From Octopus vulgaris (lineage: Eukaryota): a DNA stretch of 64,000 nt. Numbering within the stretch: position 1 is the first letter of the stretch; each line of letters starts with the position of its first letter. The translations under genes were made by a program, and so were the position numbers. Shown piece after piece: positions 8,431 to 9,307 of this stretch. The notes under the pieces were generated by a model. It saw nothing but the letters and a program-made list of their open reading frames with translations. It was not told where the DNA came from and made no database searches. The DNA is taken from the NCBI GenBank assembly GCA_951406725.2, contig OX597826.1, positions 22,878,001 through 22,942,000 on the forward strand. The letters are read 5' to 3'.

Positions 8431-9307
8431 TACGTATGAGCCTCAATATATACACCGGTGATTCGCTTCCACATCCGTGCGGATGGGTGAGCGTATGCAT
8501 CCTTGAGGGTGGGTGCGGTCTCGCGCGCATCAGTCGTGTATGTGTGCAGTTGCGTACACGGGAGTGATGTGTGATCAACTTGAATGTGCGGAGTTTGCTA
8601 CGAATCGTTGGTGGACCATCGTGATGAATGGGGCCCATATACGTGTAGTGATGGGGCTCCCTTTGCCATGCACGATTGTACCTGTGTGGCAGTCTCCATG
8701 TGTACATTCGCGCACGGGTATACATGCGTGGGGCACACGCGCACGGCATGTGCGTGTACCCCCTTACATGTACATATGCATGCTTGCTGGGCTCGATATG
8801 TGCAGCAGTGTGTTCGCGCCCGCACTCATGCAGATGGGTGAATTGCACAACTAAAATACGCACACGTGTGTGTGTGCGTTTTTTGGTTGTGTAGTTTGTT
8901 TATCTGTGTGAGAGTGGGTGTGAGCGTATTGTTGTGTATGTCGGGTTTGGTACGTATGTATATGGGTATGTGGGGGGGGGTGTACGTATGTGTTGTGTGT
9001 GTGTGTTTTGCGTATGTGTGTTTGTGTGTGGATGTATATATGGAGATTGCTATGTGGGTGTAATTGTGTATGGTGGGGGGAGTTTTGTCATTGTATGTGT
9101 GTGGGTTTCATTTGTCATGGTGGTTTGTTGGTGATTTGTGGTAGGTTCTGTATATTTGGGTTGATTATGTATTGTTCTTGTGTGTGCAATTGTATACATG
9201 CATGATTGGTGTGCGTGGGATTGCGCCCATTTTTGGGGATGTATGTGTTTATTTGTCCGTGTGGGGTGGGAGTGGGTTTTTGGTGTATATATTGAGGTTT
9301 ATACGTA
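8431..9307. repeat. About 435-bp-arm fold-back inverted repeat with dense A>G substitution in both arms
   Basis: Symmetry axis at 8865/8866 (ctaaaatacgcacac|gtgtgtgtgtgcgttttttgg). Arm mismatches are almost all G.T pairs; compared with the A-rich copy at about 11085-11388. Confidence 0.9.

Follow-up and report, generated by a model that had tools for sequence, protein, structure and literature searches.

Both arms of a fold-back in a Penelope-like retroelement of Octopus vulgaris carry dense A>G changes on one and the same strand. The changes lie on the strand of the element's open reading frame (ORF), are confined to sequence that can pair and avoid adenosines preceded by G, which together form the signature of hyper-editing by ADAR. 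The same set of changes is carried by copies elsewhere in the genome, and a second wave of A>G occurs in a sister subfamily in which the hairpin is flipped. The best explanation, to which we give a probability of roughly 0.88, is that ADAR hyper-edited fold-back RNA of the element and that the edited RNA was reverse-transcribed into heritable DNA, at least two times. Here, the window is the whole 64,000-nt stretch that was analyzed (G000:C13:22878001-22942000), and the assembly searched comprises 2.8 Gb in 227 contigs.

RESULTS

The fold-back belongs to a dispersed Penelope-like element

The fold-back lies within a truncated element (Table 1) that is part of a dispersed family; in a first-look search, 11085-11430 and the 3' end drew 964 and 1579 candidates, respectively, the best 40 of each being scored. 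The 5' junction of the window insertion is spanned by contigs of the public runs X1 and X4, and segment maps of the loci place the 3' ends of family copies at 12125 or about 12200. The flanking SINE-like repeats are presumably of the octopus type. The 3' region of the element (8866-12000) is strongly G/T-skewed, with a GC skew of 0.57-0.68, in unedited copies too.

Table 1. Coordinates of the element and its parts in the window
Feature	Position	Strand	Remarks
Penelope-like (Hydra-type) retroelement, 5'-truncated copy	8371..12207	+	3' noncoding region containing partial repeats, both tandem and inverted; window copy lacks an ORF
Short forward fragment, repeat of the already edited right-arm end	8371..8426	+	5' junction of insertion; 94.6% to 10444-10499
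Left arm, inverted element copy	8431..8865	-	109/195 ancestral A (+ strand) now G; edits 8438 to 8845
Hairpin apex, GT repeat	8866..8871	.	Palindrome center 8865/8866; from sequence and alignment
Right arm	8872..9307	+	51/107 ancestral A now G; edits 8885 to 9276
Unpaired continuation, internal negative control	9308..10050	+	A>G 0/177
Edited right arm, tandem duplicate	10108..10500	+	98% to 8922-9317
Paralogous subunit complementary to left arm (the "A-rich copy" of the first-pass annotation)	11080..11390	+	Own A>G 9/77; flanks 0/145 and 0/131
Minimal type I hammerhead-like motif	11986..12028	+	By eye and regular expression; marks element sense strand
(TA)n tract, insertion target	12204..12248	.	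Element 3' end

By its motifs, hammerhead and (TA)n ends, the element is a Hydra-type Penelope-like retroelement. An ORF lies upstream, on the same strand as the edits, in sister copies L092-L094, where it is partial or broken; L137, L138 and L143, whose hairpin is flipped, have the frame fully open, at 841, 852 and 828 aa, respectively. The L137/L138 protein has a reverse transcriptase (RT) followed by GIY-YIG, with GLYRDD and VY..YIG motifs that are conserved, by eye, across 12 homologs; these homologs are 29-38% identical and share KWK, DKT, CxCX5C, CxxC-E and N-CxH. In L137, the N-terminal RIKWKA and SDKT align to MRW and ADKT of the homologs and resemble RMRWKA and SDKT of Hydra-1_Obim. 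In the protein, CTCRDKSNC represents the CxCX5C linker, and CYLCSNE and LLN...KCRH represent CxxC and CxH around a conserved E and N. The only named homolog comes from Octopus bimaculoides (a protein matching at 64% across 12% of the query), and Pfam and PDB profile searches of the ORF gave no significant match. The Hydra clade is described in PMC8557442 as having a single RT-then-GIY-YIG ORF, DKT, CxCX5C, CxxC and CxH motifs, a hammerhead and (TA)n targets. A preference for (TA)n is visible at the window 3' end and at many other loci, and the segment maps contain partial tandem copies (pLTR), inverted 5'-truncated copies and a 3' tail on one end. According to the same source, inverted 5'-truncated copies are typical of Penelope-like elements, a habit that supplies an origin for the fold-back.

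The hammerhead-like motif is built of CCAC / CTGAAGAT / TGTC-loop-GACA / TGAA / ACA-AT-TGT / A / GTGG. Its layout resembles the Hydra HHR rows in File S2 of PMC8557442, and it has 95 exact matches genome-wide versus 0 for a reversed control. Rfam has no hammerhead match at 11986-12028, and the minimum-free-energy fold differs from the hammerhead fold; over the whole window, Rfam gave 0 matches at the gathering score and, in E-value mode, subthreshold matches only, mostly microRNA models on hairpins. Hydra-1_Obim (Craig et al. 2021, PMC8557442) is alike in ORF layout, motifs, hammerhead, (TA)n and tandem and inverted copies, but by eye it is a different family, with another hammerhead and N-terminal sequence and, as modeled there, a length of 2507 bp and no pLTR. 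What sets the window family apart from Hydra-1_Obim is a G/T-rich 3' region of several kilobases that contains an edited, inherited hairpin.

Two other identities were considered and rejected. Metazoan non-LTR retrozymes, presented in PMC7229834 as nonautonomous tandem monomers of 170-400 nt with a type I HHR, do not fit an element of several kilobases with its own ORF, and a mitochondrial control-region insertion, considered for the G/T skew, does not fit a Penelope-like ORF and low C>T. Between the RT thumb region and the linker, the ORF at L137:5321-7846 also carries some 100 aa of Asn/Lys-rich low-complexity sequence, an insert that the 12 homologs lack or place elsewhere. Many of the family's 3'-end motifs lie in tight inverted pairs, 20-100 nt apart (e.g., C6:5633432/5633511), which amount to very short palindromic insertions.

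A>G changes stop where the duplex stops

Ancestral states were polarized with L073, L075 and L076, three naturally unedited copies located on other contigs, which have the homologous stretch without the hairpin; a state was called ancestral when at least two of the three agreed. Aligned with each other, the arms (8431-8865 and 8872-9307) form 434 pairs, comprising 266 Watson-Crick pairs, 163 G.T or T.G, 0 A.C or C.A and 5 others. The first-pass annotation had described a fold-back of about 435 bp centered on 8865/8866, with arm mismatches that were G.T pairs from same-strand changes, and this description holds. The + strand hairpin of the present sequence has a predicted folding energy of -608.6 kcal/mol with 98% of its bases paired, and the - strand has -228.3.

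On the + strand, 56% of the ancestral adenosines of the left arm and 48% of those of the right arm are now G (39 of the right-arm changes fall in 8866-9172), alongside 8 and 6 other changes, respectively. G>A, C>T and T>C number 1, 4 and 0 in the left arm and 0, 1 and 1 in the right, so that the arms together hold 160 A>G versus 1 G>A, 1 T>C and 5 C>T. Expressed per site, C>T affects 5/131 C's and G>A 1/134 G's; the latter figure led us to reject APOBEC-type G>A on the sense strand. Past the right arm, the changes cease, with none of the 177 adenosines in the 743 nt of 9308-10050 affected (Fisher p=1.6e-26), and the ORF of four flipped copies has only 1-5 A>G at about 703 A sites. At the aligned edited sites, an internal paralog of greater age (78% identity) carries A in 28/38 cases, T in 66/76 and C in 3, which confirms the direction A>G; together with the three close copies, older internal paralogs thus place A/T rather than G/C at the ancestral sites.

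The 5' neighbor context matches that of ADAR, which avoids a 5' G, as stated in the review PMC8586724. Over 296 sites in both arms, A>G occurred at 46/69 adenosines preceded by A, 78/132 preceded by T, 27/67 preceded by C and 8/28 preceded by G. The 5'-G sites are thus spared (8/28 versus 151/268; p=0.009), and the left arm, where the annotation had noticed spared GA dinucleotides, has 1/9. The ADAR signature also includes a favored G as the 3' neighbor; here such sites were changed somewhat more often (15/21 versus 144/275), a difference that is not significant (p=0.11). The unchanged stretch of about 20 nt in the left arm beside the apex was likewise correctly noted; it spans 20 nt with 10 A's, the last left-arm edit being at 8845. 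Edits at strand 3' ends (1/20 versus 4/13; p=0.07) are only suggestive of sparing, and no cross-strand exclusion of edits was seen at offsets -3 to +3. Runs converted as a whole occur, as had been reported (AAAA>GGGG at 8653-8656).

The annotation had compared both arms with 11085-11388 as an A-rich unedited reference, but this stretch is a paralogous subunit that is itself edited at 9 of its 77 A sites, and that choice distorted part of its counts. Because the reference was edited, 8 right-arm edits were hidden; the reported excess (about 32 A>G and 1 G>A) is genuine, but the count in that stretch is 39-40 and G>A is 0. For the same reason, most of the approximately 10 C>T reported in the left arm were mispolarized, with 1 real in that stretch, whereas the approximately 75 A>G given for the left arm recur as 75. 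The subunit, complementary to the left arm, is nonetheless in line with editing confined to duplex, since its flanks are unchanged (0/145 and 0/131). Eight of the nine edits of the subunit coincide with right-arm edits, which conversion could give too.

The edit set is inherited

Among the best 40 of 196 candidates for the left arm, 4 other loci have it almost complete (96-97%), 1 has a 241-nt piece of it (99%) and 34 have a deleted form. Edit sharing was examined at 30 other loci, and both arms were counted at 24; L036, L038, L046, L054, L055 and L060 were left out as truncated or rearranged. Over the compared stretch, each of the 24 copies has 46-51 of the 52 edits in the window's left arm and 32-39 of the 39 in its right arm. 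A set common to the window and 24 other copies indicates that the edits go back to a single origin in a master element and were inherited by the window copy, so by this comparison they predate the window insertion. The proposal of the first-pass annotation, a hyper-edited fold-back RNA that was reverse-transcribed and became heritable, is supported, with ADAR and the RNA step read from the signature; the three outcomes that it had named as refuting (G/C as the ancestral state, no support for the G alleles, equally dense A>G in unpaired parts) all failed to appear. The editing did not take place at the window locus, however, since 24 other copies share the edits.

Fold-backs are a known assembly artifact, and the support from sequencing runs consists here of contigs, not raw reads. 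An artifact of assembly or sequencing, such as RNA-derived sequence in the assembly, is nevertheless exceedingly improbable, as the same edit set occurs at the 25 loci compared, on many contigs, and contigs from runs of three studies match at 98-100%, one of them crossing the apex. The matches to the edited arms are a 304-nt X2 contig over the apex with 3 differences, a 264-nt X2 contig with 0 and a 220-nt X4 contig with 1; matches were taken at >=93% from assembled contigs of runs that we guessed to be DNA or that are unlabeled, and they may include sister copies or the assembly's own source. Among the runs listed for the stretch, none is on record as RNA; run X13 is RNA by guess only, and its contigs are no evidence of expression. 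The G alleles in question are seen at dozens of loci as well as in contigs assembled from the public runs of three studies.

A second wave of A>G in a flipped subfamily

In a sister subfamily (L038-L060), the hairpin has the reverse orientation with respect to the ORF and the 3' end. Nine flipped segments from 8 loci were compared with the unflipped, parent-like copy L096. On their own sense (ORF) strand, they carry 39-81 A>G versus 0-1 T>C in the inverted part, and the 8 long ones carry 35-60 A>G versus 5-8 T>C in the forward part; unflipped L104 has 0 A>G versus L096 in 2259 nt. In a 205-nt stretch with 107 A sites, each of 23 flipped copies has 34-50 G's, at 80 sites in total, and unflipped copies have only 1-4 such changes. 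The changes shared among the 23 copies are 71 A>G and 0 T>C. Read in window orientation, the right arm has 187 T>C in 18 flipped copies and 0 in 7 unflipped ones. The second wave also avoids 5'-GA (0/9 versus 66/98, p=1e-4; 0/17 in the rest of the inverted part). The A>G strand is thus the ORF strand in both subfamilies, and the flipped copies with open frames of 828-852 aa carry both waves. A C>T excess on the flipped strand was rejected as a further signal, being largely a matter of base composition and CpG sites.

Right-arm changes of the second wave favor sites opposite first-wave G's (20/53 versus 9/35 distinct sites). ADAR likes A.C mismatches, and the bias fits ADAR, but it fits arm-to-arm conversion also; conversion cannot give the changes at the 9/35 sites with an unedited partner. 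Edit patterns differ within the subfamily: L046-L050 and L053-L060 share one, and those of L038-L045, L051 and L052 diverge among themselves in both directions (except that L045 and L052 are alike), which suggests that further rounds of editing may have taken place. Changes found in only one of the 23 flipped copies show no enrichment of A>G (9/107 A versus 4/54 T in the second hairpin arm; 11/128 versus 3/35 in the right arm), so the data establish only two waves and not fresh edits at each insertion. One locus, L099 (G000:C5:107586001-107596000), is a near-perfect 5.7-kb palindrome of two flipped, twice-edited copies (2810 pairs, 3 mismatches), a very young insertion of the edited lineage.

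Other fold-backs and deaminase genes

Inverted pairs formed at insertion have few mismatches and are unbiased overall, with G.T/A.C counts of 3/2 in L021 (1028 pairs), 0/0 in L020 (945), 0/3 in L018 (700), 2/0 in L099 (2810) and 1/1 in L144 (1161), and L130 (7/1; 456 pairs) and L100 (6/2; 2178 pairs) lean toward G.T. This control covered 13 loci chosen from earlier maps and used megablast, which makes it blind by design to heavily edited arms. In GT- or AC-rich sequence, a self-alignment that tolerates transitions produces a spurious excess of G.T or A.C, and such counts were used only when outgroup-polarized. An apparent second hyper-edited hairpin in L155 (2048-2492; 98 G.T, 0 A.C) was rejected as a (GTAT)n microsatellite, a trap for genome-wide scans. 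Other fold-backs of the window have no clear bias (3981-4693, 24/23; 43691-44954, 11/12; 54573-54712, 2/1; 63152-63784, 9/12). The 7/0 at 16067-16733 comes mostly from forced alignment in the loop, and outside the loop there is no editing signature. This last fold-back is a head-to-head arrangement of a second repeat family (2224 candidates) with TA-rich ends and, by eye, a hammerhead-like core in the right arm; it is likely another Penelope-like family. The adenosine-deaminase domain PF02137 has 13 matches at four genome loci, at a domain level that does not separate ADAR1, ADAR2 and ADAT.

DISCUSSION

Origin of the edits and alternatives

The history that we propose would begin with an integration event that gave a Penelope-like element an inverted 5'-truncated copy. 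Carried later inside a transcript, this structure would have formed a perfect RNA hairpin of about 435 bp, in which host ADAR would have deaminated about half of the adenosines of both arms. The edited RNA would have been reverse-transcribed, I being copied as G, and integrated in cells whose DNA is transmitted to offspring, presumably in the germline or early embryo. The edited element would have stayed mobile and seeded dozens of copies, including that of the window. Later, an inversion would have turned the hairpin around with respect to the ORF, making new duplexes that were edited on the new sense strand, possibly in more than one further round.

The main rival still open places the adenine deamination, by ADAR or another deaminase, in DNA or a DNA:RNA intermediate of retrotransposition, that is, a sense-strand DNA hairpin or a hybrid. 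In model substrates, DNA:RNA hybrids can have their DNA strand edited by ADARs, as summarized in the review PMC12925331, and sequence alone cannot identify the molecule that was deaminated. We nevertheless regard this rival as improbable: editing of first-strand cDNA would give sense-strand T>C, of which 1 was seen, inversions made at integration are without a G.T excess, and a hybrid would span the whole element, yet the ORF and unpaired parts are clean. Retroelement RTs are error-prone, and the A>G runs seen here lend something to error-prone reverse transcription (through dNTP imbalance or A>G slippage); mutation followed by selection for G.U wobble belongs beside it. Still less can be said for this pair of readings, as the changes stop at the arm boundary and skip the ORF and 5'-GA is avoided in two separate waves; under wobble selection, C>T would be equally acceptable, yet it is outnumbered by A>G 160 to 5. 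A G-C ancestor with + strand C>T in both arms (through deamination that is APOBEC-like, of methyl-C or of single strands), or a strand bias of the mitochondrial type acting on an inverted stretch, would also yield same-strand G.T mismatches, and the region is indeed strongly G/T-skewed. But the three unedited copies have A/T at the edited sites, as the older paralog mostly does, true C>T is rare, and the ORF is Penelope-like with no mitochondrial genes, which leaves this reading hardly any probability.

Relation to known systems

The nearest precedent that we found for the favored reading, editing of fold-back RNA by ADAR followed by reverse transcription, is in avian retroviruses, and none was found for an endogenous element; novelty is provisional. 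ADAR-edited regions of avian retroviruses have "nearly 50%" of adenosines changed A>G, one such region being an inverted repeat (PMC12925331); the cases, as cited by the reviews PMC12925331 and PMC8586724, are U3 of Rous-associated virus 1 (Felder 1994) and an inverted repeat of avian leukosis virus (Hajjar and Linial 1995). The likeness extends to the A>G rate near half of adenosines, to the inverted repeat in one case and to the reverse-transcribing nature of the element. Those retroviruses are exogenous, whereas the octopus case concerns a host retrotransposon, inherited, present at dozens of loci and edited again on the opposite strand. Both virus cases are reportedly of cell-culture origin.

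Fixed APOBEC DNA editing has been described in endogenous LTR retroelements (Knisbacher and Levanon, PMC4866542; Zaranek et al., PMC2873906) and is alike in that a host deaminase left strand-biased hypermutation in genomic retroelement copies. As described, it gives sense-strand G>A from cytidine deamination of cDNA, independent of pairing, in contrast to the duplex-confined A>G of the octopus element, and it was reported as absent from the 19 invertebrate genomes screened; the main text of PMC4866542 does not use the word ADAR. Inverted Alu pairs offer another likeness, a long fold-back of repeat RNA with promiscuous A-to-I hyper-editing by ADAR in transcripts (PMC4982230), but that editing is seen in RNA and ours is read from DNA; this 2016 review, in its treatment of Alu, gives the part played by ADAR editing in Alu subfamily evolution as not determined. 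ADAR1 and ADAR2 are summarized in PMC12925331 as restricting L1 largely without editing. Searches of CC-licensed PMC and bioRxiv full text, a scope that leaves subscription literature aside, returned no paper describing ADAR-type A>G that had become fixed in copies of endogenous retrotransposons and none linking Penelope elements with A-to-I hypermutation. Carmi 2011 and Knisbacher and Levanon 2015 may treat an editing-to-DNA route.

Consequences

The published deaminase footprints that we found to be fixed in endogenous retroelements are APOBEC G>A. The octopus element suggests that A-to-I RNA edits, too, can enter heritable DNA via reverse transcription and persist in a still-moving lineage, which would make RNA editing a heritable mutagen of a retroelement and would imply ADAR activity on retroelement RNA in cells contributing to offspring. 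It would add a strand- and structure-specific class of mutation that alters about 50% of A's at one stroke and can bias both the consensus sequences built for repeats and the ages estimated for them. We lean, with some reserve, toward the broader view that ADAR editing has been a recurring heritable mutagen of Penelope-like elements in this lineage and that daughter copies of re-transcribed fold-backs are snapshots of independently edited germline RNA molecules. If so, the differing patterns of the flipped copies (34-50 G's each, with 80/107 sites changed in at least one of 23) would be single-molecule records of past germline A-to-I activity, and the same would be expected in other families and in other heavily editing animals. 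A test at the level of assemblies is at hand in a polarized same-strand G.T excess in inverted repeats of Penelope-like elements.

Other repeats in the window

The window holds several further repeats. Fragments at 18922-20056, 26365-29651, 58996-59640 and 61437-62045 we take, by eye, to be RTE-type and other non-LTR RT fragments, a Helitron-like helicase piece and a Penelope-type RT piece. On the - strand, 33344-36775 contains an uninterrupted frame of 1143 aa with endonuclease, RT and C-terminal zinc-finger-like motifs by eye, resembling ORF2 of an L1/Tx1-like LINE; it is accompanied by a partial duplicate at 31506-32873 and by ORF1-like frames at 37331-38721.
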